This document shows positions 7,943 through 30,015 of a stretch of DNA of 32,000 nt, piece after piece (positions within the stretch are counted from its first letter, which is position 1; every line of letters begins with the position of its first letter). The DNA is from Akkermansia muciniphila ATCC BAA-835. GTDB taxonomy: Bacteria > Verrucomicrobiota > Verrucomicrobiia > Verrucomicrobiales > Akkermansiaceae. A program made the position numbers and the translations under genes. A model generated the notes under the pieces. It did not search any database and had not been told where the DNA came from. It saw only the letters and a list, made by a program, of their open reading frames with translations. The stretch covers positions 720,001 through 752,000 of the forward strand of contig NC_010655.1 in NCBI RefSeq assembly GCF_000020225.1, given 5' to 3'.

Positions 7943-9877
7943 ATGTTCGGATATTACAGACTTGCCTCCGCCGTCCCCCAGCTCCGCGTGGCTGAAGTGG
8001 ACTACAATGTCGACCAACTTACGGAGGGATTCCGGAAAGCCGCAGAACAGCAGGCGGCGGCCGTCGTTTTCCCGGAACTGTGCATTACGGGCTATTCCTG
8101 CGGAGACCTTTTCTTCCAGCCGAACCTGAGGAAAGCAGCCCTGAACGGCCTGCTCCGCTTTACGGAAGCCACGGAAGGCTCCGGCACGATTGCCGTGGTG
8201 GGCCTGCCCTTCCTTCATGAAGACGCTCTGTATAATACGGCGGCGGTAGTGCAGTCCGGCCGCATTCTGGCTCTGGTGCCCAAAACCGTGCTCCCCAACT
8301 ACCGGGAATTCTACGAAAAGCGGCAATTCACCTCCGGCAGGGAATTGGGTACAGGAGTGAAGGAAGTCACAGTCAATGGGGTGCATATCCCGTTCGGGAC
8401 GGAAATCGTTTTTCATGAAGAATCGTCTCCCTTCAGTTTTGGCGTGGAAATATGTGAAGACCTGTGGAGCGTCATTCCTCCCAGTTCCAAACTGGCTCTT
8501 CTGGGTGCCAGAGCCATTCTCAACCCTTCCGCAGGAACGGAACTCACCGGTAAGGCCGCATACAGGAGGGAACTGGTCAGACAGCAGAGCGGCAGATGCC
8601 TCTGCGCCTATGTCCTTTCCTCCGCAGGTGTGCATGAATCCACCACAGACACCGTATTCGGCGGCCATTCCCTCATTGCGGACAACGGCAGGCCAGCAGC
8701 GGAGGGGGAACGGTTCTGCAGGGAAAGCACCCTCATCTTTGCGGACGTGGATTTTGAACGGCTGGAGGCGGCGCGCCTCTCTGAAAGCTCCTTCAATGAC
8801 AGCAAATCCCTTTTCCCTGCCGGGAATGCCCTGCATCTGGCCCTGCCGGAACAGGTTCCCGGAGCGCCCGGCCTGGAATACGCTTTCAACCCGGCACTGC
8901 CCTTTCTGCCTTCTCCGTCCCGCCGCCGGGAACGGTGTGAAGAAATCATCTCCATCCAAACGGCAGGTCTGGCCAAAAGAATGGAACATACCCGCGCGCA
9001 ACGGCTCGTCATCGGCATCTCCGGCGGGCTGGACTCCACGCTGGCTCTGCTCATCTGCTCCCGCGCCTGCCGTGCGCTGAAGCGCCCTGCCTCGGACATT
9101 CTGGCCGTGACAATGCCCGGTTTCGGCACCACGGACAGAACCCATGACAATGCCGTAACCATGTGCCGCCTTCTGGGCGTGGAACTTCGTGAAATCCCCA
9201 TCTCGGAATGCTGCCTCCGGCACTTCGCCGACATCGGGCACGATCCTGCCGAACGAACCACCACTTATGAAAACGTCCAGGCCCGCGAACGCACGCAAAT
9301 TCTGATGGATTTGGCCAATAAAACCGGGGGGCTGGTCGTGGGAACAGGGGACTTGTCGGAAATTGCCCTGGGATGGAGCACCTACAATGGGGACCACATG
9401 TCCATGTACGCGGTCAACTGCTCCATTCCGAAAACGCTGATACGCTGCCTCATTGAACACATCGCGGAAGAATCATCCCCGGAACTGGCAGCCACCCTCG
9501 CGGACATCAACAACACTCCCGTCAGCCCGGAACTCCTGCCGCCGTCGGACGACGGCACCATTGAGCAGAAAACGGAAGATGTGCTTGGGCCTTACGACCT
9601 GCACGACTTTTTCCTCTTCCACTTCATTAAATACGGTGCGGAACCGGATAAAATCCTGCACCTGGCGGAACATGCCTTCCGCGGCGAATTTCAGCCGGAC
9701 TTCATCCGCCGCTGCCTCGGCATCTTCATCCGCCGTTTCTTCCGTCAGCAATTCAAGCGCAGCTGCATGCCGGACGGCCCCAAGGTGGGCACCATTTCCC
9801 TTTCCCCGCGCGGGGACTGGCGCATGCCTTCCGACGCCTGCGGAACCGTGTGGGAAAAAGCCATCCCCCACTACTGA
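7943..9877 (+). CDS. nadE: glutamine-dependent NAD(+) synthetase
   Basis: 644-aa ORF. The N-terminal nitrilase/CN-hydrolase domain has FPELCITGY and GVEICEDLW. The C-terminal NAD synthetase domain has the PP-loop GISGGLDST. Confidence 0.95.
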   Translation: MFGYYRLASAVPQLRVAEVDYNVDQLTEGFRKAAEQQAAAVVFPELCITGYSCGDLFFQPNLRKAALNGLLRFTEATEGSGTIAVVGLPFLHEDALYNTAAVVQSGRILALVPKTVLPNYREFYEKRQFTSGRELGTGVKEVTVNGVHIPFGTEIVFHEESSPFSFGVEICEDLWSVIPPSSKLALLGARAILNPSAGTELTGKAAYRRELVRQQSGRCLCAYVLSSAGVHESTTDTVFGGHSLIADNGRPAAEGERFCRESTLIFADVDFERLEAARLSESSFNDSKSLFPAGNALHLALPEQVPGAPGLEYAFNPALPFLPSPSRRRERCEEIISIQTAGLAKRMEHTRAQRLVIGISGGLDSTLALLICSRACRALKRPASDILAVTMPGFGTTDRTHDNAVTMCRLLGVELREIPISECCLRHFADIGHDPAERTTTYENVQARERTQILMDLANKTGGLVVGTGDLSEIALGWSTYNGDHMSMYAVNCSIPKTLIRCLIEHIAEESSPELAATLADINNTPVSPELLPPSDDGTIEQKTEDVLGPYDLHDFFLFHFIKYGAEPDKILHLAEHAFRGEFQPDFIRRCLGIFIRRFFRQQFKRSCMPDGPKVGTISLSPRGDWRMPSDACGTVWEKAIPHY

Positions 9878-9944
9878 GACCTCCTATCCGGAAAGTTGCG
9901 GAGACGGCTTTTCCCGGAACCCGGCAAGGATGCCGAAGACCGCA

Positions 9945-10280
9945 TCAATGCCCGGGGGCCAACTTCAGCCCGATAATGCCTATCAGCAGGAAGGATGCCG
10001 CCAGCATGCGCCAGATATTGGAAGAATCCCCGAACCACAGAATACCAACCAGGAACGTGCCCAACGCGCCAATGCCGGTCCATACCGCATAAGCGGTGCC
10101 GATGGGGATGTTCCGCTGGGCAAGCCACAAAAGAAAACCGCTCAGAACCATGCTGAAAACGGAGCAGGCGATACAGGCGGCGAATTTGCCGGGCCCAGTG
10201 CCGGGCGTTTGAGAAAGTTTGAAACCCAGAGGCCATCCGATCTCGCAGAGACCGGCCAACACCAGATAAATCCAGGACAT
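9945..10280 (-). CDS. sugE: SMR-family small multidrug resistance protein / guanidinium exporter (SugE/Gdx-like)
   Basis: 111-aa ORF with four TM segments. MSWIYLVLAGLCEIGW contains the conserved membrane Glu, and GTAYAVWTGIGA is typical of SugE/Gdx. Confidence 0.9.
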   Translation of the reverse strand: MSWIYLVLAGLCEIGWPLGFKLSQTPGTGPGKFAACIACSVFSMVLSGFLLWLAQRNIPIGTAYAVWTGIGALGTFLVGILWFGDSSNIWRMLAASFLLIGIIGLKLAPGH

Positions 10281-10592
10281 ATATCGAAACGGGGAATCAC
10301 CTTCCGCTCACCGGCCTTCCCAAACGGAAAAAGCTCCAAGGGCAACGGATGCCCTGCAGAATATCTGCCCGGCGTTTCCGATCAAGGCAATAATTTTTTA
10401 TGAACCCGTATAAAATGGGATACACACTGTTTCACCGGCTTCGGAAAAATGGTTCTTTCAAACATGAAATCTACAAAAACATATTTACCATAAGTCACAT
10501 ACCTGTTCTTTTTAATTAAAAAACGGTCTTATTTCAAGCCTTCTCGAATATCCTTGAGCCGGAAGCCTCCGCCCTGTGATATTGGTTCCGTT

Positions 10593-11306
10593 ATGGCTAT
10601 TCATTATTCACTTACCGCCATCATTCTGACCGGAAGCATGGCTTCCACGGGAATCGCGGCTACTACATGGACAAGCGCCACCCCCGATCTCTCCCCCACA
10701 TCCCAGTACCTGTGCACCGGATGGTCTTTCTGCCTGGGAGAAGCAGGGTCAAGGCTTATCACGACCAGCACGCCGCATTCCCAGCCAATGGATGCAGAAG
10801 TACGTCTAACGTCCATTGATTTCAATTTGAGAGAGGCCAGAAAGAACGGAACAGGCCTGCTCATCGTGCAACATTCAGGCGGTATCCAAACCATTATCGG
10901 CAAATCGGACAATACCATTTCTACTGGAAACTATGTTTCCGGAACATGGACTTTTACCAACGGGCCAATTTTAAACACAGGCACTACTTATTACGCCATG
11001 TTTACTGAAACGGATCTGTCCGCCATCAGCATAGGAGACTGCTGGGACAACGATTTCTTCTCCATCAACGGTTCCCGGCGTATCGACAATTCCATGGATA
11101 ACGCAGCCGGAACGGGGCCGTCTGTCAACCAGCTCGCTTTAGTCGGCTCCAATTGGCAAAAGGACTTTATTGCCCGTAACGATAACATGGTTCCCACAGG
11201 TCTTCAAATCCATACACAGGCCGTACCGGAACCGGCAAGCGCATTGCTGCTTACGTTTGGCATGGCGCTTCTGCCCTTCAGACGCCGCAAATCTCCCACA
11301 CTTTAA
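10593..11306 (+). CDS. PEP-CTERM sorting-domain secreted protein, function unknown
   Basis: Track ORF starts at a TTG (10554). I prefer the ATG at 10593 (MAIHYSLTAIILTGSMASTGIAA, a signal peptide). The C-terminus VPEPASALLLTFGMALLPFRRRK is a canonical PEP-CTERM anchor: PEP, a TM helix, then a basic tail. Confidence 0.8.
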   Translation: MAIHYSLTAIILTGSMASTGIAATTWTSATPDLSPTSQYLCTGWSFCLGEAGSRLITTSTPHSQPMDAEVRLTSIDFNLREARKNGTGLLIVQHSGGIQTIIGKSDNTISTGNYVSGTWTFTNGPILNTGTTYYAMFTETDLSAISIGDCWDNDFFSINGSRRIDNSMDNAAGTGPSVNQLALVGSNWQKDFIARNDNMVPTGLQIHTQAVPEPASALLLTFGMALLPFRRRKSPTL

Positions 11307-15566: not shown

Positions 15567-17087
15567 ATGAACCGAATCCTTCCATTACTATCCCTTCCCC
15601 TGCTGTCGCTCGCAGCGGTATTTGCCGCTAATACGCCGGAACACATCGGCAACGACCTCAAACTGTTCAAAGACTCCTCCTGCACCTCCCTGAAGCCGGA
15701 TGTGAAAAACACCTCCGCCTTCCAGTCTGACGCGATGAAGGAACTCGCGACCAAAATCCTGGCAGGCCATTACAAGCCGGACTACCTGTATGCCGAATAC
15801 CGGGCCCTCCCCTCACCGCGCCAGACGGGGAAAAATCTCAGAATCGGCGACGGATTCAGCAAATACGACAACATGACGGGCGTCTATCTGGAAAAGGGGA
15901 GGCATGTCGTCCTGGTCGGCAAGACGGAGGGGCAGGAAATCAGCCTCCTTCTGCCGAACCTGATGCGCAAGCCGGCCGAAGGAGTGCAGCCCACAAAAGA
16001 CCCCAACGGCTGGGGATTGCATAAAAAGCAGATTCCGCTCAAGGAAGGAATCAACATCATTGACGTGGAAACGCCCGCCAACGCCTATATCAGCTATTTC
16101 ACCGAAGACGCCGGCAAGGCGCCGAAAATCCCCGTCCATTTCGTAACCGGCAAAGCCAACGGCTACTTTGACACCACCCGGGGCGACACCAACAAGGACT
16201 GGGTTCGCCTGCTTGACCAGGCCGTCTCTCCGATCATGGATGCCCGGGGAAAATACATCCAGGTTGCCTACCCCGTAGAATTCCTGAAAAAATTCACCAA
16301 AGACCGCGGAACCGAACTCATCAACGCCTACGACAAGCTCATCGGCATCCAATACCAGCTGATGGGCCTGGATAAATACGGCAAAATCCCGGAAAACCGC
16401 GTCCTGGCCCGCGTGAACTTCAACTACTACATGTTCCGCGACGGAGACGGAGTCGCCTACCTCGGAAACGACGGGACAATGCGCATGGTAACCGACCCTG
16501 AAAACGTTCTCAAGGGCGATGCCTGCTGGGGATTCTCCCACGAAGTCGGACACGTCATGCAAATGCGCCCGATGACCTGGGGCGGCATGACGGAAGTCAG
16601 CAACAACATCTTTTCCCTGCAGGCCGCAGCCAAAACAGGCAATGAAAGCCGCCTGAAGCGCCAGGGCAGCTACGACAAGGCGCGCAAGGAAATCATCGAA
16701 GGGGAAATCGCCTACCTGCAATCTAAGGATGTCTTCAATAAGCTGGTTCCCCTGTGGCAGCTCCATCTTTACTTTACCAAAAACGGACACCCCGACTTCT
16801 ATCCTGACGTCATGGAGTACCTGCGCAACAACGCGGGAAACTACGGAGGGAACGACACCGTCAAATACCAGTTCGAATTCGTCAAGGCATGCTGTGACGT
16901 CACAAAAACCGACCTGACAGACTTCTTTGAGAAATGGGGATTCTTCAAACCCGGAAAATTCCACATCGGCGACTATGCCCAGTACGACTTTAACGTCACC
17001 CCTGAAATGGTGGAGGAAACGAAAAAGTGGATTGCCGGCAAAGGCTACCCGAAACCCGAAACCGACATCACCGAACTAAGCGAGTAA
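15567..17087 (+). CDS. M60-like zinc metallopeptidase (mucin O-glycopeptidase)
   Basis: 506-aa ORF with a signal peptide (MNRILPLLSLPLLSLAAVFA) and an HEXXH zinc site (GFSHEVGHVMQ). It matches my recollection of the characterised Amuc_0627 mucinase. Confidence 0.9.
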   Translation: MNRILPLLSLPLLSLAAVFAANTPEHIGNDLKLFKDSSCTSLKPDVKNTSAFQSDAMKELATKILAGHYKPDYLYAEYRALPSPRQTGKNLRIGDGFSKYDNMTGVYLEKGRHVVLVGKTEGQEISLLLPNLMRKPAEGVQPTKDPNGWGLHKKQIPLKEGINIIDVETPANAYISYFTEDAGKAPKIPVHFVTGKANGYFDTTRGDTNKDWVRLLDQAVSPIMDARGKYIQVAYPVEFLKKFTKDRGTELINAYDKLIGIQYQLMGLDKYGKIPENRVLARVNFNYYMFRDGDGVAYLGNDGTMRMVTDPENVLKGDACWGFSHEVGHVMQMRPMTWGGMTEVSNNIFSLQAAAKTGNESRLKRQGSYDKARKEIIEGEIAYLQSKDVFNKLVPLWQLHLYFTKNGHPDFYPDVMEYLRNNAGNYGGNDTVKYQFEFVKACCDVTKTDLTDFFEKWGFFKPGKFHIGDYAQYDFNVTPEMVEETKKWIAGKGYPKPETDITELSE

Positions 17088-17143
17088 CGTGATTCGGCAA
17101 TCCCGACGGTTCCCTTTAAATATCAAATATATCTGAAACTGGT

Positions 17144-17257
17144 AAAAAAGACTAACTATAGAGATTACAGATAAGGTTTCTCAAAAGATTTAGCTCGAGA
17201 TAATAAAATGTGCATAATCATTCAAAAAAGACTAAATACGAACATGTTGAGAGATTA
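17144..17257 (+). repeat. direct repeat aaaaaagactaa (two copies 80 nt apart), each followed by gagatta
   Basis: Exact 12-mers at 17144-17155 and 17224-17235. gagatta follows at 17161-17167 and 17251-17257. My rough estimate for a chance 12-mer repeat in 600 nt of AT-rich DNA is below 0.1. Confidence 0.35.
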
Positions 17258-17470
17258 TATTCTTATTTCAAATGATTCCTATAAATTTAGAAAATATGTG
17301 GATGGTTTAGTGAGCTTATTAGTAAATCCAAGGATATATTTTCTCCCATAAAGAAAGCTACTACCAAATCCTTGGATACAACTATTCAAGAACAAAAACT
17401 TCATGACTCTTTTAACTTCCTTATGTATTTATTACAAAGTATCAAAAGATTTGAAAACTCAAATTTTTAA
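17208..17470 (+). pseudogene. possible decayed ORF remnants inside the islet
   Basis: A 47-codon ATG ORF runs 17208-17351 (MCIIIQKRLNTNMLRDYILISNDSYKFRKYVDGLVSLLVNPRIYFLP*). It is overlapped by a start-less 59-codon open frame at 17291-17470 (...KKATTKSLDTTIQEQKLHDSFNFLMYLLQSIKRFENSNF*). One frameshift would join them. No homology recognised. Confidence 0.2.
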
Positions 17471-17528
17471 ACCAAGAAATAAAGAGATTCCGCACAGCAA
17501 CTATTGAATTCAATCTGACGAATTAATT

Positions 17529-17546
17529 AAATTTATTAATAAATTT
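17529..17546. repeat. perfect 18-bp palindrome AAATTTATTAATAAATTT (candidate operator)
   Basis: Read directly: aaatttatt pairs with aataaattt with no mismatch. It lies about 180 nt upstream of the islet ORF. The palindrome is certain; any function is speculative. Confidence 0.5.
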
Positions 17547-17727
17547 GAAATAACGATAGATTTTTATATCAAAAATTTACCATTGTCATGAATTATTAAC
17601 CGAGCAGAATTTCGTGACAATTTTTTGTTGAAAAACTAAATATTATAAGAACATATTTGAATAAAACTCGAAAAGAAATAGATAACTGATTTTTCTAACG
17701 TTTCATCTTTCCTTGAAATCATTGTTG

Positions 17728-18453
17728 ATGAACAAGAGATATAAGCAAATTTGTTATTTATGTGGAAAGAAACTATCTAGAGGTTCTTCTAATAGAACTG
17801 TGGATCATATTCCACCAAGAGGATTTTTTCCTGAAAATTTTGATCGAAAAGTTAATTTACCAACTGTTTTATGTTGTAGAAAATGTAATAACTCATACGC
17901 TAGGCTTGATGAAGAATTCCGATTCTTGCTCTCTAGTGGCAATTATCGTTCAAAAGCAGGAGATTGGATTTGGAACAACAAATCCGAACCTAAAATTGGA
18001 AAAAGTCTAATTAATTTTTGTGCAGACCTAGTAAGAGGTTTCAGGGGATATGAGATTCTTCAAATGGAAGATTCTTTTTCACAAGCGGTCAACATAACAG
18101 TTTCTTACACAGAAAAAATACTTCCTTTTTTTAGCAGACTAGCAAAAGGATTTTTAGTGTATGATTCACATAATTATAAAAATTATGACTTTGTTGTATT
18201 TCCCTTGTATAATTATCCAGAAATATACAATATAATGATGAAATATCCTGATAAAAGATCATTTTTAGATGATAACGGGGAACATATATTTTCTTATGTT
18301 TATCAACATGATCAAAAATTCGATAAAGGATTCTTTTTCTTTTCTTTTTATAAAGATCAGCATTTTGGTGTTCTTTTTGAAAGGTCAATTTACACTTCTA
18401 CTTCAGAAAAGAAAATTTTGGATGATATAATTAAGAAATGGAATATTTATTAA
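17728..18453 (+). CDS. HNH (H-N-N variant) zinc-finger nuclease-domain protein with an uncharacterised C-terminal domain
   Basis: Track ORF starts at TTG 17713. The first ATG is at 17728, giving 241 aa. Motif: C9-x2-C12 ... D26-H27 ... N43 ... C50-x2-C53-N54 (ICYLCGKKL...TVDHIPPRGFF...VNLPTVLCCRKCNNSY), a classic bba-Me/HNH finger with two CxxC zinc knuckles. I recognise no motif in residues ~60-241. Confidence 0.8.
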   Translation: MNKRYKQICYLCGKKLSRGSSNRTVDHIPPRGFFPENFDRKVNLPTVLCCRKCNNSYARLDEEFRFLLSSGNYRSKAGDWIWNNKSEPKIGKSLINFCADLVRGFRGYEILQMEDSFSQAVNITVSYTEKILPFFSRLAKGFLVYDSHNYKNYDFVVFPLYNYPEIYNIMMKYPDKRSFLDDNGEHIFSYVYQHDQKFDKGFFFFSFYKDQHFGVLFERSIYTSTSEKKILDDIIKKWNIY

Positions 18454-18498
18454 TCTAAACAAAACAACTTATTTCCCCATTTCTTCCTTATAGCCTTG

Positions 18499-18540
18499 CA
18501 AACAAAAAACCGCAATATACTCATCACGAGTATATTGCGG
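18499..18540 (-). terminator. rho-independent terminator of tRNA-Ser
   Basis: Perfect 13-bp stem: ccgcaatatactc (18510-18522) pairs with gagtatattgcgg (18528-18540), with a 5-nt loop. On the minus strand it is followed by UUUUUUGUUUG (the complement of 18499-18509). It begins 12 nt after the tRNA 3' end. Confidence 0.75.
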
Positions 18541-18551
18541 CAGAAAATTGA

Positions 18552-18642
18552 TGGCGGACAGGGAGGGATTCGAACCCTCGGTACCGGTTTGCGGTACACA
18601 CACTTTCCAGGCGTGCTCATTCGACCACTCTGACACCTGCCC
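18552..18642 (-). tRNA. tRNA-Ser (anticodon GGA), type II with a long variable arm and encoded CCA
   Basis: Hand fold of the reverse complement: GGGCAGG UG UCA GAGUGGUCGAA UGA G CACGC CU-GGA-AA GUGUG U-GUACCG-CAAAC-CGGUAC-C GAGGG UUCGAAU CCCUC CCUGUCC G CCA. It has a 7-bp acceptor stem, a 3-bp D-stem, a 5-bp anticodon stem, a 6-bp variable-arm stem, a T-loop UUCGAAU and G73. It closely resembles E. coli tRNA-Ser(GGA) as I remember it. Confidence 0.93.
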
Positions 18643-18675
18643 GTTGGAGATTGTGCTAGATAGGAAAGCAGGGAT

Positions 18676-18704
18676 AGAATAACGGCAGAAGAGAGGTTTG
18701 GCAA
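18676..18704 (-). promoter_or_regulatory. candidate sigma70-type promoter for tRNA-Ser
   Basis: On the minus strand: TTGCCA (18704-18699), a 17-nt spacer, then TATTCT (18681-18676). The -10 element ends 33 nt upstream of tRNA position 1. This rests on a motif match only. Confidence 0.3.
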
Positions 18705-19339
18705 TCTTTTTTTCATCCGGAAGGTATTTCCCCGTTTTCCCCGAGTTTTTTCACGTTTCCGGCGGTTGCGCGAAGAGGATGAAAAGTGCCCCGACAGCGC
18801 GAGAAAATCTTCAACGGGCATAAACAGCAACGAAGCGTATTTTCAGAAGTTTTGAAAGGAACAGGTTTCCGTGGTTCACAAAAATTATCCATGAGGGCAT
18901 GGCAGATTTTCGCCCTCCCTGCCCTGTTTTTCCCACGGGGCAAATAAGAATTTTTCTCTTTCTCCACCTTTACGGCTTCCGGGTAATCGGGGAAGGTTCA
19001 AGCAAAAACCTCTATTGATAAGCTTGCTTCCGTCCGGGCTCCAGGATTGACCAGCAGCCGTTTGAGAAGTTTCAGGAGCGAGACGGGAAGAGAAGACTGA
19101 AGGATCCCGGAAGCCCAGGGTTCCGAGAGTTCCGGGAAGGCGCGGCAGGAATGGGAATCCATGCTGTAAGAAGAGAAGGCGGAACATGCCGTTTCACCGC
19201 GTATCATCATTTCCGCGGCTCCGCATTCCTCCCGTCCTCAAAAAAGGGCAAAGGCTTCCGGCATGTCCCGGAAAAGGCGTTTCCCGACCGCACTTCCCCC
19301 TTGACGGATGCCCCAAAGACGGGTTTGCTAGTCCTGCGC

Positions 19340-20359
19340 ATGGGAGAGTCCTTTTACACACGCACCACGGAGGCCCCCTCCTCCGCCTTCGATTTGTCCC
19401 TCAGACCGCCCGCTTTCAGCGAGTTCTGCGGCCAGGAAAAGATTAAGGACCGCCTGATGCTGATGGTGGAAGCCGCCAGACAGCGCGACGACGTGCTGGA
19501 CCATATCCTGTTGAGCGGCCCGCCGGGCCTGGGGAAGACGACGCTTGCTAATATTATCGCGAATGCCGTCGGCTGCCGCATTCATACGACTTCCGGCCCC
19601 CAGATTGAAAAGGCGGGAGACCTGGCCGGCGTGCTGACCAATCTGGAAAAGGGGGATATTCTGTTTATTGACGAGATCCACCGCCTGCACCCGGCCATTG
19701 AGGAGTATCTGTACCCGGCCATGGAGGATTTCCGGCTGGATATTATCATCGACCAGGGGCCGAACGCCCGCTCCATCCAGCTCAACCTGCCCAAGTTCAC
19801 CCTGGTGGGGGCCACCACCCGCGCCGGGATGCTGACCAGCCCGCTGCGTTCCCGCTTCGGCCTGGTGAACCGGCTGGATTATTATACGCGGGAGGAGCTG
19901 TGCGCCATTATCGAACGGTCCGCGGGGCTGCTGAACGTGCCCGTGGACCCGGAGGGCGCCCTGCAGATCGCGCTGCGCTCCCGCGGCACGCCCCGCGTGG
20001 CCAATTCCCTGCTGCGCTGGGTGCGGGATTACGCCCAGGTGCGCGGCGACGGCGTGATTACGGAGCAGTTGGCGCACGATGCCCTGACCATGATTGAGAT
20101 TGACGACGACGGCCTGGACGAGATGGACAAGCGCCTGCTGGAAGCGATGATTTACAAGTTCAACGGCGGCCCGGTGGGCCTTTCCTCCCTGGCGGTGGCC
20201 GTAGGGGAGGACGCTTCCACGCTGGAGGACGTGCACGAGCCTTTCCTGATTATGCAGGGGTATATCAGCCGCACCCCCAGGGGGCGCGTGGCGATGCCCT
20301 CCGCCTATCTCAAGATGGGAGCCGCGCCGCCCGCCAACGGCCAGGGGTGGCTGTTGTAA
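19340..20359 (+). CDS. ruvB: Holliday junction branch migration DNA helicase RuvB
   Basis: Track ORF starts at 19151, but alignment by eye to RuvB begins at the ATG at 19340 (MGESFYTRT...[19 protein letters not shown]). Walker A is [11 protein letters not shown] and Walker B is LFIDEIHRL. The protein is 339 aa. Confidence 0.95.
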
Positions 20360-22966: not shown

Positions 22967-24031
22967 TTATTCCAAATCCTGCCGGGCACCGCAAACGGCC
23001 CGTTTCACTTTCCTGAGCTTGAAAAAGAAAACCATGCAGAATAAATACAGCTTTTGCGGCAGGCAGTGGACGATACCCATCCATCCCGGCCGCCTCAACG
23101 CCCATCTCCGCCGAAAGGGATAACTCCACCAATTCTGCTGCCGGTCAATGCTGTCTATGATTTTTCTCCTCTCCTCCATTTCGGCAAGCAGTTCTTCCCG
23201 CGAGCGAAAAACCGGAGCAAGGCCCTCCAGCAATTCCCCGCACAGTTCCAACCCCGCCTCCTTGCTTTTTTTCAACTGGCTTTTCATTTCCAGCTCCCTT
23301 TTTTCAAAGGCCGCCGCCGCCCGCATGTCGGCAAACCGGAACGCGCTGTTGACAGCGCAAATATTTTTAAGCGCAAACCGGTAATAATATAAGGATATGC
23401 CCGGCATTTCATAAATGTTGCCCTGAAGCCATGCGTGGAACCCCATCAAGTCGTCTTCAAAACTGGCCGTCATCCGCAGGGAGCTACCCCATTCGCAGGC
23501 GCTCTTCCTGATCATCATGCTTCCTCCGTAATGGGCGGAAGAAGAAAAAGCTCCCGCCTGAAGCACAACAGCCGGCCTTTCCCGCGGAGCAGCAGGAAAG
23601 GCCGGGAATTCAAACGCAATGCCCGGTTCCTCATAGACGCTGGTCATCTGGCTGACCACAGCCACGGCATCCGGGCGTTCCATCACTGCCCAGGCAAAAA
23701 GCCTGCATCTCCAGGGGAAGGAACAATCGTCCCCATCCTGACGGAGAATCCATTCATGGGAAGCCAGACCAACCGCCTGCCGGATATGAGGCCCGCGCCC
23801 CAGCGGCGTTTCATTCCGGTTTAAGATTACCCGGTACGGCCCCCTGTATTGAGCCGCCATTTCCTGCATGACGGAGAAGGTTCCGTCGGAAGAGCCGTCG
23901 TCCGAAAGGATGATTTCCACCGGCCCTTCATAATCCTGCCCGAATACGCTCCGGATAGCATCCCTGATGCTGCTCTCCTCATTATGCCCGGTCAGGATAA
24001 TGCTGATGGAAGGGAGTTCCGAAGGGTTCAT
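22967..24031 (-). CDS. family 2 glycosyltransferase with a C-terminal coiled-coil/TM extension
   Basis: Track ORF uses TTG 24061. I prefer the ATG at 24031 (MNPSELPSISIILTGHNEE). SDDGSSDGT and the DGDD motif are typical of GT2. The C-terminus is charged and helical (EKRELEMKSQLKKSKE...) and ends in a hydrophobic segment. Confidence 0.85.
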   Translation of the reverse strand: MNPSELPSISIILTGHNEESSIRDAIRSVFGQDYEGPVEIILSDDGSSDGTFSVMQEMAAQYRGPYRVILNRNETPLGRGPHIRQAVGLASHEWILRQDGDDCSFPWRCRLFAWAVMERPDAVAVVSQMTSVYEEPGIAFEFPAFPAAPRERPAVVLQAGAFSSSAHYGGSMMIRKSACEWGSSLRMTASFEDDLMGFHAWLQGNIYEMPGISLYYYRFALKNICAVNSAFRFADMRAAAAFEKRELEMKSQLKKSKEAGLELCGELLEGLAPVFRSREELLAEMEERRKIIDSIDRQQNWWSYPFRRRWALRRPGWMGIVHCLPQKLYLFCMVFFFKLRKVKRAVCGARQDLE

Positions 24032-24586
24032 GAAGAAAAAGCACGGAAAAGAAAGCGTCAAACATGAAGAGGACCATGTCCTTTTCTGTTTATTAATAAG
24101 GCATCACGTTCATACCGGATTCCAAATCCGGGGTCAAGGGTTGATTTTTATACCAAGGAACTTATGTTGCGCGGACGTTTTGTCATCAAGAATCTCCCCC
24201 TTGCGGGCAGGGAGTCCGAAGCCGGGAAAACAGGACGAAAGATTCTGCTTTCCCTTACTGCTCCCAACATACACATTTTTTCATAAGCAATTATTTTTTA
24301 GAATCATAGAACTCTTAGAACCAGACCTAGCCGGAATACCTCCATACCCCACCGGTTCCATGAGGTCTTGGGACAATTCTCTGTTCATTCATGCTGAATC
24401 CGGAATTTCCCAATCGAATTTGGAATTCGCTATGACAGGTTCATTCGCGCACTGATGAATCATGGGAGGAACGATGGATTCGTCCCCTGCCATTCACCGG
24501 TTGCAATGGTTACAGCCCCATCAGAATCATGTCCTCCATATCCTGATTCCCGTTCCACTCACGAAGCAGTTCATCATTCCCCTTGT

Positions 24587-25624
24587 ATGCAGAAACCGTT
24601 CTTCAGCATTATTATCCCGGCCTATAATCTGGAGAATTATATTGCTGCCACCCTTCAGTCAGTACTGGTTCAAACATTTCAGGATTTTGAGATCATCATC
24701 GTGGATGACGGTTCTTCCGATGAGACTGTTTCCATCATCCAATCTTTTCATGACCCCAGAATTCGCCTGGTTTCCCAAGTTAACGGCGGCGTATCGCGAG
24801 CGCGAAACGCAGGGATGAAGAAGGCCGTGGGGGCTTACATCGCTTTCCTGGACGGAGACGATTACTGGTATCCCGAGCATCTGGAGCTGGCAGCCGATTT
24901 TTTCAACCGTCATCCGGAGATATTGGCCTATGCCAACCGCTACATGAGGGATGAACTGGAGGCCATCCCGCCGCGCCCTCCATCTTATCCCGAATCTATC
25001 CGGAGATTGGGGATACGGGGAGTGCTTTTCATGAATTCCAGCAGCGTAATCCTGAATTCGTCTCTTGCGTCCCGGCTTCCCCCCTGGGAAGAAGCGATGC
25101 CCTATGGGGAAGACGGCCTGTACTGGACACGGTGCATGCGGGGGACAGGCCTGATCGGGCTGGGAGGCTCCGTCACCTCCATCTACAGGCAGAGAGCTTC
25201 TTCCGCCATGCATGACGAGCATTACCAGCATGTCTCCCTCCACTCGCTCATTGCGCCTCTGCTGAATGAGCTTGAAGCCATGAAAAATCCCAAATGGCAA
25301 TTTGCCGTCCATTATCTGGTCATCAGGGAATTGCATCCCAAAAGACTGTTATCGCTCAACGCAGAGGAGCGGATTTCCCTGACGGGCAGGATCAGGAAAA
25401 TCATGCACCCATGCCTGAACCGGCCGTTTTTGGACTCCTATATGAAAGCGTGTTCCGCAAGGGCAGGCATGGAACAGTCATTTTCCGCGCTCATGGACAG
25501 AACCATGTTCTCCTGCAAATGGCTGGACCGCCTGGAAAGGATGGGCCGCTCCCTGTTTTTCCGGCTGCAAACCAATAACGGAATGGGGGGCAAACACCAA
25601 GATCCAGTCCGTTCACGCTCATGA
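24587..25624 (+). CDS. family 2 glycosyltransferase
   Basis: Track ORF starts at 24455. The canonical GT2 N-terminus begins at the ATG at 24587 (MQKPFFSIIIPAYNLENYI...VDDGSSDET...FLDGDDYW). Confidence 0.85.
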   Translation: MQKPFFSIIIPAYNLENYIAATLQSVLVQTFQDFEIIIVDDGSSDETVSIIQSFHDPRIRLVSQVNGGVSRARNAGMKKAVGAYIAFLDGDDYWYPEHLELAADFFNRHPEILAYANRYMRDELEAIPPRPPSYPESIRRLGIRGVLFMNSSSVILNSSLASRLPPWEEAMPYGEDGLYWTRCMRGTGLIGLGGSVTSIYRQRASSAMHDEHYQHVSLHSLIAPLLNELEAMKNPKWQFAVHYLVIRELHPKRLLSLNAEERISLTGRIRKIMHPCLNRPFLDSYMKACSARAGMEQSFSALMDRTMFSCKWLDRLERMGRSLFFRLQTNNGMGGKHQDPVRSRS

Positions 25625-26568
25625 ATATCGTATACGCTACAGACGATAACGGCGCGCTGGGAACGGGCGTGAGCATTGTGTCCCTCATGGAGAATTTGCC
25701 GCCCGGCGTTCATGCCGATATTTACATCATGACTGGCGGGTTAAGCGGGGATAATACGGCCCGTTTCCATTCCCTGCAACAGGGCTACAATCTCCATTTG
25801 CACTTCATTGACATGAAGGATAAATATACGGATTTCCCCGTCGGTTCCAAATGGTCGGCGGCGACGTATTACCGCCTTGGCCTCGCAGGGGAACTTCCCG
25901 CCACGGTAGAACGCGCCCTTTACGTGGATATTGATACCATTTTCAACAGGGACATAAGCCCCATGTATGAATCCGAATTCGGAGATTGCCTCATTGCCGG
26001 CGTTTTCACCACGGAAGATTTATCCGAGGAGTCTTTTTCACGCTGGAAGAGAGAAATGAATCTGGGCCGGGACTCCATTTACATCAATGCCGGCGTCATT
26101 CTTTACCATATCGGAAGAATACGTGAAGAATGTTTTGAATCCCAGGTTTTATCCTGGGCGAAAAACAATATTCACCGCCTTTCCTGGCAGGATCAGGATA
26201 TTTTGAATGTATGCTATCAGCAGCGTATCTTGTTGCTTCACCCCATGTGGAACATTTGCGACGGGGCTATCTGGTCCATTCGCTGGGAAGGCGTGACAAG
26301 CTTCAGGAATAATCCCCTAAAGCCGGCAGACCTGCTGGAAGCCGCCAGGCGGCCGGGCATTATCCACTACTGGGGCCATCCCAAACCCTGGCATCCCAAC
26401 AGCATTCGCCAGGATTACGGATTGTTCTACAAGTATTGGAAGAAATCTCCGTGGAAAGATGACATCAGGGATTTCCGGAAGCAAAACGATCCCGGCCGGA
26501 TGTTCATCTCCAAAATGAGATGCCTCCTGGGAAAGGGTAAACGGCTTTTACAAGGCAGGCATCAGTAG
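25621..26568 (+). CDS. family 8 glycosyltransferase (LPS/glycan alpha-hexosyltransferase-like)
   Basis: 315-aa ORF with NIVYATDDN, YYRLGL and YVDIDTIF (a DxD motif), typical of GT8. Its start overlaps the upstream stop in an ATGA arrangement, which suggests translational coupling. Confidence 0.9.
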   Translation: MNIVYATDDNGALGTGVSIVSLMENLPPGVHADIYIMTGGLSGDNTARFHSLQQGYNLHLHFIDMKDKYTDFPVGSKWSAATYYRLGLAGELPATVERALYVDIDTIFNRDISPMYESEFGDCLIAGVFTTEDLSEESFSRWKREMNLGRDSIYINAGVILYHIGRIREECFESQVLSWAKNNIHRLSWQDQDILNVCYQQRILLLHPMWNICDGAIWSIRWEGVTSFRNNPLKPADLLEAARRPGIIHYWGHPKPWHPNSIRQDYGLFYKYWKKSPWKDDIRDFRKQNDPGRMFISKMRCLLGKGKRLLQGRHQ

Positions 26569-26796
26569 AAATACGGAGGAAGGCCTTATTTTTCTGACAT
26601 CCGGCCATTTACAAAACCGCCTTTTATGGGGAAATACCGGAGCTGGCTATTTTTTTTAACAAGCCGGCTCAGCTTCATTCCGGAATTTTCCCGAATCCGG
26701 AAAGAACCGCCCGCATACTTCTTCAGAAACGTCTCAACGTTTTATGCCTGATGATCTTTCCGGAGTTTTATCAATAGTTAAAAAAATAATTTATTT

Positions 26797-28044
26797 ATGA
26801 AAGTTGATACTATTAAGGGAAGTTCCTATGTCATGACCTGTACAAAAGCTTGTACTGTAAGCGCCATCTTCAATTCCGGAGAGACGTCCATGCTTATTCT
26901 GGAAGCAGAGAAAAAAGGGCAATACGGTTTTGCAGCCCCGACGGACGCCGTCGAAGTATCCGATGAAGACGCCCTGATCACCCAGGTTTTCAAAACAGCC
27001 GTTCCAGGGTTGCCAGGCCAGAACGGCATCAGGCAAGGAGAAAATGCCGAATTAAAAAACCTGACGGCTGAGTCCGGGACTTTTGCAGGGGCCGTCAACG
27101 CCAACGGAGGCATCAACATCCCGCTGGCCGTGGGGGCGGCAACGGATACGTCAGCGGTCAACCGCCTGTACGCCGCCGGGCTGGCTGCCGTCACTGACGC
27201 TTTTTCCGTCAGGTGTTATCCGCTCCTGGCGGATTGCTCGTCTTCCAATGGGACGGTTTTCAAAACGGACAAGGAACCCAATTCCCTTTATTTCAATGTC
27301 CCTCCCAATTCCGCCTTTACCGTGAAATGCGGCCTCGCGACCAACGCGAGGCCCATGCACAATTATTCCAGCATCCGGGGTTGGGTGGCCCCGCTGCGAC
27401 TGCCGTCTGTCAGCACGAAATTCACGGCCAGGTTCGGCCAGATGACAACGGTTGCGCGCATGGGGCGGGACAGGGACGCGTTTACGCTGGTGCCGGATCA
27501 GGCGGCTGGCGGCTACAAGATTGGGGAGATTATCGATATTACGTTTGATCATGTCCGGGACGCGGACGCGGGAGGGTATCATATTCGCGTCCGGGAGATC
27601 TATTATTCCAATGCCGAGCAGAAATGGAAGATGAAGACGACGCAGGCCTTCGCGCAAGAGACGTCTTCCAATAACGGTTATCCCGTCTGCGTGTACGCGG
27701 TGGTTTACGAACAATACCAGGACGGAGGATATGATACTGAAGACAGGGGTGCGCTGTGGCTGCTGCATGGCGGGAATTCCTCCCGCAGCTGCGTCAAAAT
27801 CGCCACGGTGAAGGGAGTCCATTGCTTTGAGAGTATTTATCCATTTTCCGGGTACTATCTTGATATGGAGAATACCAACAGCTGGGCGTTGGCCGGAGCT
27901 TTCCTACCTGCGACGATGCACTTGCATTGCAATAACGTCAATCCGGCGTATTACGGTTTTTCCTCCATGGAGAGCAATATCATTGTCTCCGAGGCGGTGG
28001 AGGATTTTGTTGACCCGGAAGCCGAAACAATTACCGAAGATTGA
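26797..28044 (+). CDS. hypothetical protein whose N-terminal region resembles phage tail-fibre / trimeric-adhesin stalks
   Basis: 415-aa ORF with no signal peptide or TM segment visible. Residues ~70-130 read PGLPGQNGIRQGENAELKNLTAESGTFAGAVNANGGINIPLAVGAATDTSAVNRLYAAG. An AT-rich promoter-like tract precedes it. No enzymatic motif recognised. Confidence 0.7.
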   Translation: MKVDTIKGSSYVMTCTKACTVSAIFNSGETSMLILEAEKKGQYGFAAPTDAVEVSDEDALITQVFKTAVPGLPGQNGIRQGENAELKNLTAESGTFAGAVNANGGINIPLAVGAATDTSAVNRLYAAGLAAVTDAFSVRCYPLLADCSSSNGTVFKTDKEPNSLYFNVPPNSAFTVKCGLATNARPMHNYSSIRGWVAPLRLPSVSTKFTARFGQMTTVARMGRDRDAFTLVPDQAAGGYKIGEIIDITFDHVRDADAGGYHIRVREIYYSNAEQKWKMKTTQAFAQETSSNNGYPVCVYAVVYEQYQDGGYDTEDRGALWLLHGGNSSRSCVKIATVKGVHCFESIYPFSGYYLDMENTNSWALAGAFLPATMHLHCNNVNPAYYGFSSMESNIIVSEAVEDFVDPEAETITED

Positions 28045-28097: not shown

Positions 28098-29660
28098 CTA
28101 TTCAGTTTTTTTCCGCCACGGCAACCGGGTTCCCGCCATCTCCAGCGCACGGCGCACCATTCCGCGCATGCCCTGCGTACCGCAATACATTAAAAGAACC
28201 GTCACACCTCCATAAGAAGCGGCCATGAGGAAGGCGCATAAAAACCAGGAAAAGAAAGACGCGGAAGGCTGCAGAGGAACAAATTTCCAGATCCAGCCCA
28301 TGAACACGGCCGAAATCAAAATCAGCGCCAGCTGGTAACCGAATTGGAACCAGTAGTTCATCACATTTTTCCTGAATCCCCAGTTATACAGCATGAAAGG
28401 CTTCCATATGCCCACAATAAGTATCAGGCTGGAGATGCCCCCCAGCAAAACGCCGGGCAATCCCCATAAATAACCTCCGATGATCGCCACGGAAATGTTG
28501 ATCACGCTTTCCGCAAGAGGAGCCCATACATCCCAGAACAAACCGTAACCGTATAAAAACTGATCCACAACCCCCCGCGTAATGGTGATGAACAGCCTGA
28601 TAACGAGCAGCAGCATGATTTCCCGGGGAAGGATATAGCCCGCTCCCAGCCAAAGCGTGATGAATGGCTCCAAAAGCTGGTAAAGGGGGAAACATACCGT
28701 CCCGGCAATCAGCATGCGCAGGGAAAACAATTCACTGAACACCTTGCGGATTTTTCCCGCATTTCCCTCCGCAATCAAGTTGCCCACACTGGCTTCCGTA
28801 CTGCCGAGCAGGTTATTGACCAGAAGGTGCAGTTTCTCCACAATGGTGGAATAGTTGCCGAAGTAGGCCGCCATCTGGAGGGAAACAAAGGCATATACCA
28901 GAAACGGCGTCACCTGGAACTGGAAAAAGCTTCCCAGCCGATGCATAAACAACTGCTTGGTGTATTTAGTGACTTCAGGATATTTTTTGAACAGCTCCTT
29001 TCCCAGGGCCACATTGCTCTTCAGCCAGGGATAGACCTGATTGATCTTCCAATTCAGGATGAAGGAATAAATAATGCCGAAGAACAGCTCTATCCCTATC
29101 CATAAATAATAGCTTCCCGTATACCATGCAGACAGCATCTGGCATATGATTTTGATGATGGATGCCGTCTGGAAATAAAACGCCACTACGTAATTCCTCT
29201 GGTCCGCTCCCAAAAGGGTCTGCCTGTAGTTGGCAAAATACCCGATCAGGGAAGAGGCCAGAAAGGAATAATAAGCAAAATAGATGATTCCATAGGAAAA
29301 ACCTGTGGAAGGGAAAATAACCGGCAGGAAACAGGAAAGCGCTACTCCAGCCGCAATGATTATCCGCCCTATCCACCGGTACATGTATCCCAGCACGGAG
29401 ATAATTTCATTAATCCTGGTCTCATCATGCTCAAAGATCGGCTTGTAAAGCACATACCCGATAGCCGTGCTTATACCAAGTTCCGCCAAATTGAGGAAAT
29501 TCAGCAGACTCATTAATGTTCCCGTCAAACCGACAAAATCGGCACCCAGGCAATTCAAGAATATCTTTCTTGAAAAAAAGGAAATGAGAAGAATCAAAAC
29601 ATAAAAAATGAGATTGACCCTGGCGTTCAACAGGCTTTTCTTTACGCGGGATTCTTCCAT
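28098..29660 (-). CDS. polysaccharide/oligosaccharide flippase (Wzx-like, MOP superfamily)
   Basis: 520-aa polytopic membrane ORF. The N-terminus KKSLLNARVNLIFYVLILLISFFSRKIFLNCLGADFVGLTG is typical of Polysacc_synt-type flippases. Confidence 0.9.
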   Translation of the reverse strand: MEESRVKKSLLNARVNLIFYVLILLISFFSRKIFLNCLGADFVGLTGTLMSLLNFLNLAELGISTAIGYVLYKPIFEHDETRINEIISVLGYMYRWIGRIIIAAGVALSCFLPVIFPSTGFSYGIIYFAYYSFLASSLIGYFANYRQTLLGADQRNYVVAFYFQTASIIKIICQMLSAWYTGSYYLWIGIELFFGIIYSFILNWKINQVYPWLKSNVALGKELFKKYPEVTKYTKQLFMHRLGSFFQFQVTPFLVYAFVSLQMAAYFGNYSTIVEKLHLLVNNLLGSTEASVGNLIAEGNAGKIRKVFSELFSLRMLIAGTVCFPLYQLLEPFITLWLGAGYILPREIMLLLVIRLFITITRGVVDQFLYGYGLFWDVWAPLAESVINISVAIIGGYLWGLPGVLLGGISSLILIVGIWKPFMLYNWGFRKNVMNYWFQFGYQLALILISAVFMGWIWKFVPLQPSASFFSWFLCAFLMAASYGGVTVLLMYCGTQGMRGMVRRALEMAGTRLPWRKKTE

Positions 29661-30015
29661 GTTATTTATTCCATCAACCTTATCCTTTCCCGGGAGAAGT
29701 TAAAAATATCTGTTTTATTAATAACCGGATTATTTATTCAACCGGCAATATACCAACGGCATATTGCGGCTATACGGGTACGGAAAGCGGTGCCAATCTA
29801 GCACAACATCCTGCCGCATCAATATCTTTTTATGAAGCCTCAGCCAACAGGCTTCCACAGGGGATAGAAACCTGGCAGAATCGCCTGTTCCCATGACGCC
29901 TCCTTATCGCTCACCGGATAAAAAACAAATTCCTCATTTTTACAGGTTCCATGGACCGGAACAGTTCCATAAAGTGTCCTTGTTTTATTTTTTCTTTTCA
30001 TCTACATTACCGCCC

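Follow-up and report, generated by a model that had tools for sequence, protein, structure and literature searches.

A predicted single-polypeptide HNH nuclease encoded beside tRNA-Ser in Akkermansia muciniphila, with a possible restriction-like role

The window analysed here is a 32,000-nucleotide stretch of the chromosome of Akkermansia muciniphila ATCC BAA-835 (NC_010655.1, positions 720,001 to 752,000). At window positions 17728-18453, on the forward strand, it contains a gene that is predicted from its sequence to encode a self-sufficient, single-polypeptide HNH (beta-beta-alpha-metal) DNA nuclease. For this HNH gene, we favour a restriction-like role, either in the style of type IV enzymes or structure-specific, with a confidence that is evenly balanced. 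The arguments are the conservation of the protein over its full length, its selection history, its foreign composition, and its place beside a tRNA gene at which related strains accumulate genomic islands.

The HNH gene and its product

The open reading frame (ORF) is intact, as judged from the ORF list and the sequence, and encodes 241 amino acids (aa) and a stop codon from an ATG start. Initiation at an upstream TTG (17713) would yield 246 aa; the ATG is the start common to the orthologues. The assignment of 17728-18453 as a complete coding sequence for an HNH-family nuclease is based on the ORF list, an exact-sequence look-up and a family profile match of 3e-53. The look-up revealed that the protein is identical to ACD04465.1 (UniProt B2UPI8) of A. 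muciniphila ATCC BAA-835, which databases already label "HNH endonuclease" or "hypothetical protein". The HNH label is already in public records; the family itself is uncharacterised. The gene is probably Amuc_0628, a tag taken from its place beside Amuc_0627, the characterised O-glycopeptidase encoded by the adjoining M60 gene.

The gene lies in an islet (17088-18551) with a GC content of 0.28 between flanks of 0.55-0.61, bordered by the stop codon of the M60 gene (15567-17087) and the 3' end of a tRNA-Ser(GGA) gene. The HNH gene itself has a GC of 0.29 and a third-position GC (GC3) of 0.20, as compared to 0.55 and 0.73, respectively, for the neighbouring M60 gene, and is thus compositionally foreign. 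A preliminary description of the window, made from the sequence, had named it the sole intact gene of the islet. Indeed, the ORF list holds no ORF of more than 47 aa in the islet outside the HNH gene, the others being only 47 and 41 aa.

The same description placed a nuclease finger at residues 9-57 (17752-17898, forward strand), and the Pfam and PHROG matches, conservation in 102 sequences and a structural model all located it there. Specifically, the motif comprises C9-x2-C12 (nt 17752-17763), D26-H27 (17803-17808), N43 (17854-17856) and C50-x2-C53-N54 (17875-17889), and is followed by L60-D61-E62-x-F64-R65. In this HNH, or His-Me, finger core, C9, C12, C50 and C53 are predicted to bind zinc, D26-H27 to be catalytic, and N54 to be a metal ligand. 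The best Pfam match was HNH_5 (PF14279) over residues 9-65 (E 2.3e-5, 24.7 bits; gathering score 27.5), and HNH families of PHROG matched with E values down to 4e-6. The family straddles the border of the HNH_5 model, since the window protein scores 24.7 bits and a relative, P0003, passes the threshold at 29.0 bits. The likeness to HNH_5 suggested earlier therefore stood as regards the best Pfam match and the relatives that pass, and fell short for the window protein, which is sub-threshold. Similarity to the Pfam endonuclease VII model was weak (E 0.032), and the window protein had no NCBIfam match.

Beyond the finger, the protein consists of a family-conserved remainder and a tail. The remainder, residues 58-216 (17899-18375, forward strand), is delimited by full-length family matches, conservation and the model, and has no assigned family or fold. 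The tail, residues 217-241 (18376-18450, forward strand), is specific to Akkermansia in the alignment: family matches stop around residue 215-220 and the tail is not conserved across the family. It was modelled with a predicted local distance difference test (pLDDT) score of 37-58 and a predicted helix at 227-237. Residues 66-241 yielded no meaningful match in Pfam, NCBIfam or PADLOC. Two matches to this region were at chance level: one in PHROGs to residues 185-235 (E 0.069) and one to the PDB sequence 3e8v over residues 143-214 (E 0.71).

An AlphaFold2 model built with the 102-sequence family alignment was a single confident globule with a mean pLDDT of 82 and a predicted template modelling (pTM) score of 0.80. 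The finger, with a pLDDT of ~87-96 across residues 11-60, has strands 23-27 and 46-50 and helix 51-56 in a beta-beta-alpha arrangement in which D26-H27 end strand 23-27. It is followed by helices spanning 58-104, a poorly modelled hairpin (108-122), a helix (128-145) and a five-stranded sheet (153-219). Conserved residues are spread over these elements: D61-E62-x2-R65 opens helices 58-104, R137-x2-K140-G141 lies on helix 128-145, and G184, F188 and F207-Y208 are in the sheet. The protein thus has the features of the His-Me superfamily, namely a beta-hairpin plus helix with the catalytic His ending strand 1, an invariant H27, and Asn or His at position 54, and the model and conservation together support the H-N-N finger with two Cys pairs that had been proposed. 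In the model, the finger and the family-specific helical and beta-sheet domain are packed as one globule.

The preliminary description had called the C-terminal ~180 aa unplaceable, and structural searches agreed with the sequence searches in this respect. A Foldseek search of PDB and BFVD with the whole model returned nothing at E≤1e-3, the best matches (E 1e-2) being lipocalin-like sheets, which are noise. A profile search of the PDB returned only 4H9D, a small HNH protein that matched just the finger (E 0.23).

Extent and conservation of the family

A word-indexed search found just three relatives of the window protein. An exhaustive profile search, which covered 1.84 billion representative proteins of clusters at 50% identity, returned many more: 1680 representatives at E≤1e-3, 208 at E≤1e-10 and 7 at E≤1e-30. 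Nearly all are 200-250 aa long and aligned over query residues ~7-217. A second search, using a 61-sequence profile, found 983 clusters at E≤1e-5, all unnamed and mostly singletons from environmental metagenomes. The phyla represented in the family as a whole are Verrucomicrobiota, Patescibacteria, Planctomycetota, Acidobacteriota, Cyanobacteria and others. About a quarter of the listed members carry a precomputed PF14279 tag. Judged from these sequence matches, the family forms an outlying branch of Pfam HNH_5.

Conservation was counted in the 102-sequence family alignment. D26 and H27 (each 102/102), P29, L44 and C50 are invariant; C9, C12 and C53 are Cys in at least 98% of the sequences; and position 54 is Asn in 92 and His in 10. 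Residues conserved in at least 90% are C9, C12, T24, I28, P30, F34, C53, N54, D61, E62, R65, R137, G141, G184 and F207. The family residues I, T and V at positions 45-47 are conserved to the same extent, with P45 in the window protein. Because conservation spans the full length, the whole protein is the conserved unit, rather than a finger attached to a random tail.

The Akkermansia locus

The exact protein was present in 1683 blocks of the assembly collection, complete genomes of 2.66 Mb among them, always in the order M60 peptidase, 640-bp spacer, HNH gene, tRNA-Ser, ruvB. Every sufficiently long contig with the window's M60 allele also has the HNH gene. As the preliminary description had stated for adjacent genes, no methyltransferase, ATPase, immunity or antitoxin gene was found in the window or within ±10 kb in identical strains.

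Other Akkermansia lineages carry orthologues with 88-90% identity (P0001 and P0384) at the corresponding locus. In strains of these types, the HNH gene is preceded, at a distance of 5 nt, by a same-strand gene for a 414-aa protein with a GC of 0.26 (L002:6751-7995; homologues P0257-P0376, loci L101-L104); this gene is absent from the window. We refer to these loci as paired and to those of the window's type as orphan. In alignments, homology between orphan and paired loci starts exactly at the HNH ATG and extends across the tRNA. The 640-bp spacer of the window shows no relation to the 414-aa gene or to the 1.25-kb spacer upstream of that gene in paired lineages. A second orphan-type lineage (P0378; 97% aa identity, 302 blocks) has a spacer that is 87.5% identical to the window's.

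The other side of the tRNA gene also differs among strains. Paired-type loci L002, L006, L007, L009, L010 and L011 carry a GH20 (beta-hexosaminidase-like) gene (9270-10751) between tRNA-Ser and ruvB. This gene is absent from the window (compare 18643-19150), and the intergenic stretch is thus variable on both sides of the tRNA. In L003, L004, L005 and L008 (from ~8842), homology covers the terminal 19 nt of the tRNA 3' end, up to window position 18570, beyond which lies an island of >8 kb encoding AbiEii, DUF932, SRA_ScoMcrA-HNH, Dcm and AIPR, plus Vsr in L004 and L008. A different insert in L019 (from ~10830) contains helix-turn-helix (HTH) genes, an Ea47-like 227-aa gene and a gene for a 996-aa autotransporter. 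An intact tRNA-Ser is missing in the stretch examined for L003, L004 and L019. The tRNA-Ser(GGA) beside the HNH gene is thus a hotspot at which genomic islands integrate in related strains.

For the 414-aa protein, 460 homologues of 42-70% identity were found, almost all in Bacteroidota, with 31 invariant columns. Their genes were found beside a gene for a 579-aa reverse transcriptase, in a conjugative element that also encodes ArdA, a relaxase and a T4 coupling protein, and in an island composed of hypothetical genes with HEPN_AbiU2. The protein had no direct Pfam or PADLOC match, no Walker A motif discernible by eye and, despite a confident AlphaFold model (pLDDT 87, pTM 0.84), no neighbour in the PDB. 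A minority of the homologues carry a precomputed "Phage_lambda_Ea47" Pfam tag, and the literature found gives no function for lambda Ea47. Separately from the question of the HNH gene, the 414-aa gene could be another single-gene accessory or defence module.

Selection and residence at the locus

The ratio of non-synonymous to synonymous substitution rates (dN/dS) was calculated by the Nei-Gojobori method, with binomial p values against neutrality. For the window gene and its paired-type orthologue, dN/dS was 0.17 at a dS of 0.275 (p 7e-10). For the window gene and orphan-type L105, it was 0.15 at a dS of 0.091 (12 synonymous and 8 non-synonymous changes; p 8e-5). In the paired-type comparison, the core neighbours M60, RuvB and FabH had a dS of 0.32-0.53 and a dN/dS of 0.05-0.09; in the orphan-type comparison, M60 and FabH had a dS of 0.09-0.11. 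Since its dS is like that of the core neighbours, the HNH gene has been at the locus since before the compared Akkermansia lineages split. Over the same orphan-type interval, the spacer diverged by 12.5% and is no more conserved than synonymous sites. By these substitution patterns, the HNH gene is kept by purifying selection, even without the 414-aa neighbour.

Some alleles are disrupted (entries P0379, P0380, P0002 and P0385). In one 2.8-Mb genome, the gene is split into parts of 154 aa and 72 aa, with foreign, GC-rich sequence past residue 145, which suggests the insertion of a mobile element. A 129-aa form starting at M112 was present on 54 contigs.

These data bear on whether the HNH gene is the orphaned half of a two-gene system whose partner or controller, the 414-aa protein, was lost from the window, a reading close to the decayed two-gene system mentioned in the preliminary description. 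The 5-nt spacing in P0001/P0384-type strains, the shared strand and equally low GC, the start of orphan/paired homology exactly at the HNH ATG, and the Ea47-like tag in a minority of the 414-aa family are all in its favour. However, neither tblastn nor a hidden Markov model (HMM) search found a remnant of the 414-aa gene in the window, and queries with the neighbours of locus L001 likewise found nothing there. The two families also occur apart: an HMM of the HNH family found no relative at the 414-aa loci of Apibacter, Dysgonomonas and Chryseobacterium, and an HMM of the 414-aa family found nothing among the ORFs of 80 loci of the HNH family in the Genome Taxonomy Database (GTDB), with no relative of the 414-aa protein flanking 50 other HNH-family members. 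Purifying selection acts between two orphan lineages (dN/dS 0.15), the orphan-type protein is present in 1683 blocks, and a direct Pfam scan of 114 members did not reproduce the Ea47 tag. We therefore regard the two genes as independent modules that are adjacent in some Akkermansia lineages, and the loss of an obligate partner as improbable.

Purifying selection and long residence beside ruvB would also be expected of a housekeeping or accessory nuclease of DNA metabolism, acting in repair, resolution of recombination intermediates or nicking, with no part in conflict with mobile elements. The weak similarity to endonuclease VII and the many family members located amid core metabolic genes point the same way. 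Against this stand the strongly foreign composition of the gene, the sparse, patchy and mostly singleton distribution of the family, and disrupted alleles in viable strains. Moreover, the HNH gene is not consistently adjacent to ruvB, from which it is separated by GH20 or entire islands in other strains. Overall, we consider such a role unlikely.

A further possibility is a selfish, free-standing endonuclease, a chromosomal counterpart of the free-standing homing endonucleases of phages, that would spread by cutting empty alleles during recombination between strains and confer no benefit on the host. The HNH fold is a classic homing-endonuclease fold (PMC5714182), and the gene is solitary, with no partner or recombinase, lower in GC than its flanks, patchily distributed and situated among unrelated housekeeping genes in many phyla. 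However, a search of 2.9 million viral contigs of IMG/VR confirmed no relative, and tblastn against 50,697 phage genomes gave no match; in 72,556 plasmids, there was one weak, partial match, to the N-terminal part. No intron or intein context was seen, and the gene was chromosomal and intergenic at all loci seen. Occupancy of one locus with core-like synonymous divergence and a dN/dS of ~0.16 does not fit the course that the homing cycle would take once the element is fixed, and no empty allele was found among contigs with the adjacent M60 allele. A selfish element accordingly has a small chance of being the correct explanation. The degenerate homing endonuclease put forward in the preliminary description fares no better, inasmuch as the catalytic residues are invariant and no relative was found in viral contigs or phage genomes.

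Neighbourhoods of family members outside Akkermansia

Gene context was sampled at 50 GTDB loci with full-length matches. The loci were retrieved using a 12-sequence subset, and the sample is thus biased to that subset's DH[IV]PP motif. No conserved partner gene emerged: in an all-versus-all BLASTP comparison, the flanking genes of the 50 loci were 216 singletons, no family had more than 2-3 members when the ±1 to ±3 neighbours were scanned with Pfam and PADLOC, and the L001 neighbours recurred at no other loci. Models of AAA-type ATPases matched 2 of the 88 immediate neighbours, one of them the gene upstream in L044. A tightly linked upstream gene on the same strand was present at about half of the loci; its identity differed (type I S subunit, DUF6161, AAA ATPase, Rep protein or unknowns). 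The sole recurrent pairing seen in the family was with a downstream Hypoth_Ymh (TIGR02391-type) gene that overlaps the HNH gene by 4-13 nt, at L041:5983-7547 (an Akkermansiaceae metagenome-assembled genome) and L065:5983-7523 (Prosthecobacter debontii). The gene upstream is not shared by these two loci, being DUF6161 in one and a type I S subunit in the other.

The preliminary description had recommended examining homologues for enrichment in defence islands, and the outcome was mixed. The closest relative outside Akkermansia is encoded beside HEPN_AbiV and Trypsin_2, and other conflict-system neighbours were present at a minority of loci: ApeA-HEPN, RlaP, Hypoth_Ymh (two loci) and giant Sacsin/NOV_C proteins (two loci). 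Further neighbours of this kind were type I S and M subunits, N6_N4 methylases, resolvases and an integrase. Many others were housekeeping genes (transketolase, IlvD, starch synthase, tRNA synthetase), and across the family the association with defence islands is thus weak. The HNH gene was more than 3 GC points below its distal flank at 32 of 45 loci (mean difference, −6.5 points), and adjacency to tRNA genes was not general across the family. The overall impression is one of a solitary chromosomal gene that moves horizontally and is partly associated with defence loci.

These neighbourhoods also bear on whether the protein is a type II-like restriction enzyme with a distant methyltransferase, or a toxin with an unlinked or RNA antidote. 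HNH type II enzymes exist, being listed among the groups of the His-Me classification (PMC5714182), and two family loci lie inside type I restriction-modification operons and two near N6_N4 methylases. However, no methyltransferase lies within ±10 kb of the window gene and no methylase is conserved beside family members. Similarly, the islet contains no small adjacent ORF, tandem-repeat RNA or Rfam match that might act as an antidote, and sequence conservation in the spacer is no higher than expected under neutrality. We give either arrangement only a slight chance.

Comparison with known systems

In the His-Me classification of Jablonska et al. (2017), HNH_5 is listed under group 1 and also forms group 8, the latter comprising 158 bacterial proteins and 1 archaeal protein, with no viral members and without assigned function (PMC5714182). 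The family described here was likewise not found in the phage and viral searches. It shares with Pfam HNH_5 the finger C-x2-C ... DH ... N ... C-x2-C-N, whose two Cys pairs are conserved in at least 98% of the 102 aligned family sequences, and differs in that PF14279 covers ~56 residues, whereas the family's conserved remainder of ~160 residues is in no Pfam model.

PF14279 is the model for HNH partners of AAA15/21 ATPases such as PtuB of Septu (PMC11464382). PtuB resembles the window protein in size (~220-270 aa) and in its PF14279-type finger, and was the sole PADLOC family matched. However, the finger lies at ~48-108 in the PtuB profile and is N-terminal in the window protein, and the matches (E 0.012-0.035) covered the finger only. 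No PtuA-like ATPase is adjacent in the window (±10 kb) or conserved in the family. Membership in Septu therefore fails, there being neither an ATPase nor a full-length PtuB match.

The stand-alone HNH restriction enzymes of type IV, which are modification-dependent and include McrA and ScoMcrA (SRA-HNH), are comparable in that they are single polypeptides with no cognate methyltransferase and combine an HNH with a second domain; an SRA_ScoMcrA-HNH gene is itself present in the island beside the HNH gene in L003, L004, L005 and L008. The domain order is nevertheless reversed, HNH coming first in the window protein, and the second domain is without similarity in sequence or fold to SRA or another reader. 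The protein therefore cannot be assigned to type IV: searches of residues 58-241 by Pfam, NCBIfam, PDB and Foldseek recognised neither SRA, DUF262, Mrr-N nor any other reader of modified bases, and a reader of unfamiliar type may yet be present.

Small HNH proteins of phage type, such as that of Geobacter metallireducens (4H9D), and the free-standing HNH homing endonucleases of phages share the H-N-N finger and the Cys4 zinc site. In contrast to these, the window family has a large extra domain and was not found in the collections of phages and viral contigs searched, and the matches between them are weak and limited to ~45-80 residues. A homing endonuclease would be expected in a phage, intron or intein; no family member was found in the viral and phage collections searched, and the loci seen were chromosomal and intergenic. 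As for toxin-antitoxin systems and polymorphic toxins, the window gene has no adjacent small same-strand ORF, RNA family or tandem repeat, and the protein has no N-terminal delivery domain, because the finger begins at residue 9. The 47- and 41-aa ORFs of the islet lie in the spacer.

Proposed mechanism and its standing

We propose that the Cys4 zinc site (C9, C12, C50 and C53) would stabilise the finger. From established knowledge of HNH enzymes, His27 would activate water, and Asn54, with D26 and possibly D61/E62, would coordinate a divalent metal for phosphodiester cleavage. The C-terminal domain may bind DNA and discriminate the target via a modified base, DNA structure or sequence. Here, R65, R137, K140, F188, F207, Y208 and position 203 (Trp in the family, Phe in the window protein) are candidates for DNA contact or for the core of a recognition module. 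Such discrimination would spare the host chromosome without a methyltransferase or immunity protein. The gene may have been acquired horizontally from a low-GC donor; it lies next to the tRNA-Ser(GGA) beside which other strains gather defence islands.

The absence of a methyltransferase, immunity protein or antitoxin implies that host DNA would be avoided through the enzyme's own specificity or regulation, and it is for this reason that a restriction-like role is favoured. The modification-dependent or defence nuclease of the preliminary description thus remains the best reading, on circumstantial support from the tRNA hotspot, the minority of conflict-system neighbours and the foreign composition. 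An infection-triggered, abortive-infection effector is less likely than restriction-like innate defence against incoming DNA. It is possible, though rather doubtful, that the family as a whole is a single-gene anti-foreign-DNA system in which an HNH_5-like finger is joined to a new fold that senses a feature of phage or plasmid DNA.

Several observations weigh against a restriction-like role. The window protein is under the HNH_5 gathering score, its PADLOC matches are limited to marginal ones to PtuB over the finger (best E 0.012, residues 7-62), and the C-terminal domain showed no recognisable modification-reader fold. The association with defence islands is weak, as described above, and the gene is dispensable, because some strains carry disrupted alleles. 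A search of the literature library found no functional study of Amuc_0628 (inferred tag), PF14279 or HNH_5; the proposed role is drawn from sequence and context.

Additional features of the islet and the window

The AT-rich (27% GC) spacer of 640 bp, from the M60 stop to the HNH start (17088-17727), is non-coding and had no plasmid match; its lack of homology to the paired-type sequence in the same place was seen by alignment, blastn and tblastn. In one 2.87-Mb genome (L018:6706-10000), the spacer is split near window positions 17524-17531 by an insert of ~2.6 kb encoding an IS1595-family transposase, an NYN-domain protein and an HTH protein. The same eight bases border the insert at either end, apparently as a target-site duplication. 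In this genome, the gene for the M60 peptidase is also split, into 258 aa and 241 aa.

The tRNA-Ser(GGA) gene (18552-18642, reverse strand), identified using ARAGORN and Rfam, has its 3' end towards the HNH gene. Between it and the HNH stop codon lies a perfect 13-15-bp hairpin followed by a T run (18509-18541, reverse strand), the terminator of tRNA-Ser. The tRNA was the only RNA found, with no other Rfam family and no tandem array in the islet, and no copy of the tRNA 3' end, as an att remnant, was found at the M60 side. A promoter scan revealed 10 sigma-70-like sites as compared to 7.7 ± 2.4 in shuffled sequence, i.e., no excess.

The ruvB ORF (19151-20359) encodes 402 aa from an upstream ATG or 339 aa, and both versions are found among public gene calls. 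The 63 additional residues fall in the GC-rich spacer past the tRNA and are probably untranslated. Milder low-GC dips in the window at 29001-30000 (0.43), 24001-25000 (0.48), 26001-27000 (0.47) and 10001-11000 (0.50) could mark more acquired DNA.

Significance

If the HNH protein proves ordinary or inactive, the locus is otherwise unremarkable. The family domain is confidently modelled and yet without relative in PDB or BFVD, and a function for this all-hypothetical family of ~1,700 clusters would improve the annotation of many genes and supply a compact nuclease scaffold. Among next-generation probiotics, A. muciniphila MucT has been studied intensively. If the nuclease restricts incoming DNA, the gene would be an obvious deletion target for better genetic tractability of the species. 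If the family is indeed a single-gene anti-foreign-DNA system with a new sensor fold, the type strain of this major human gut commensal would encode a new class of stand-alone restriction factor, which may be part of its barrier to genetic manipulation.

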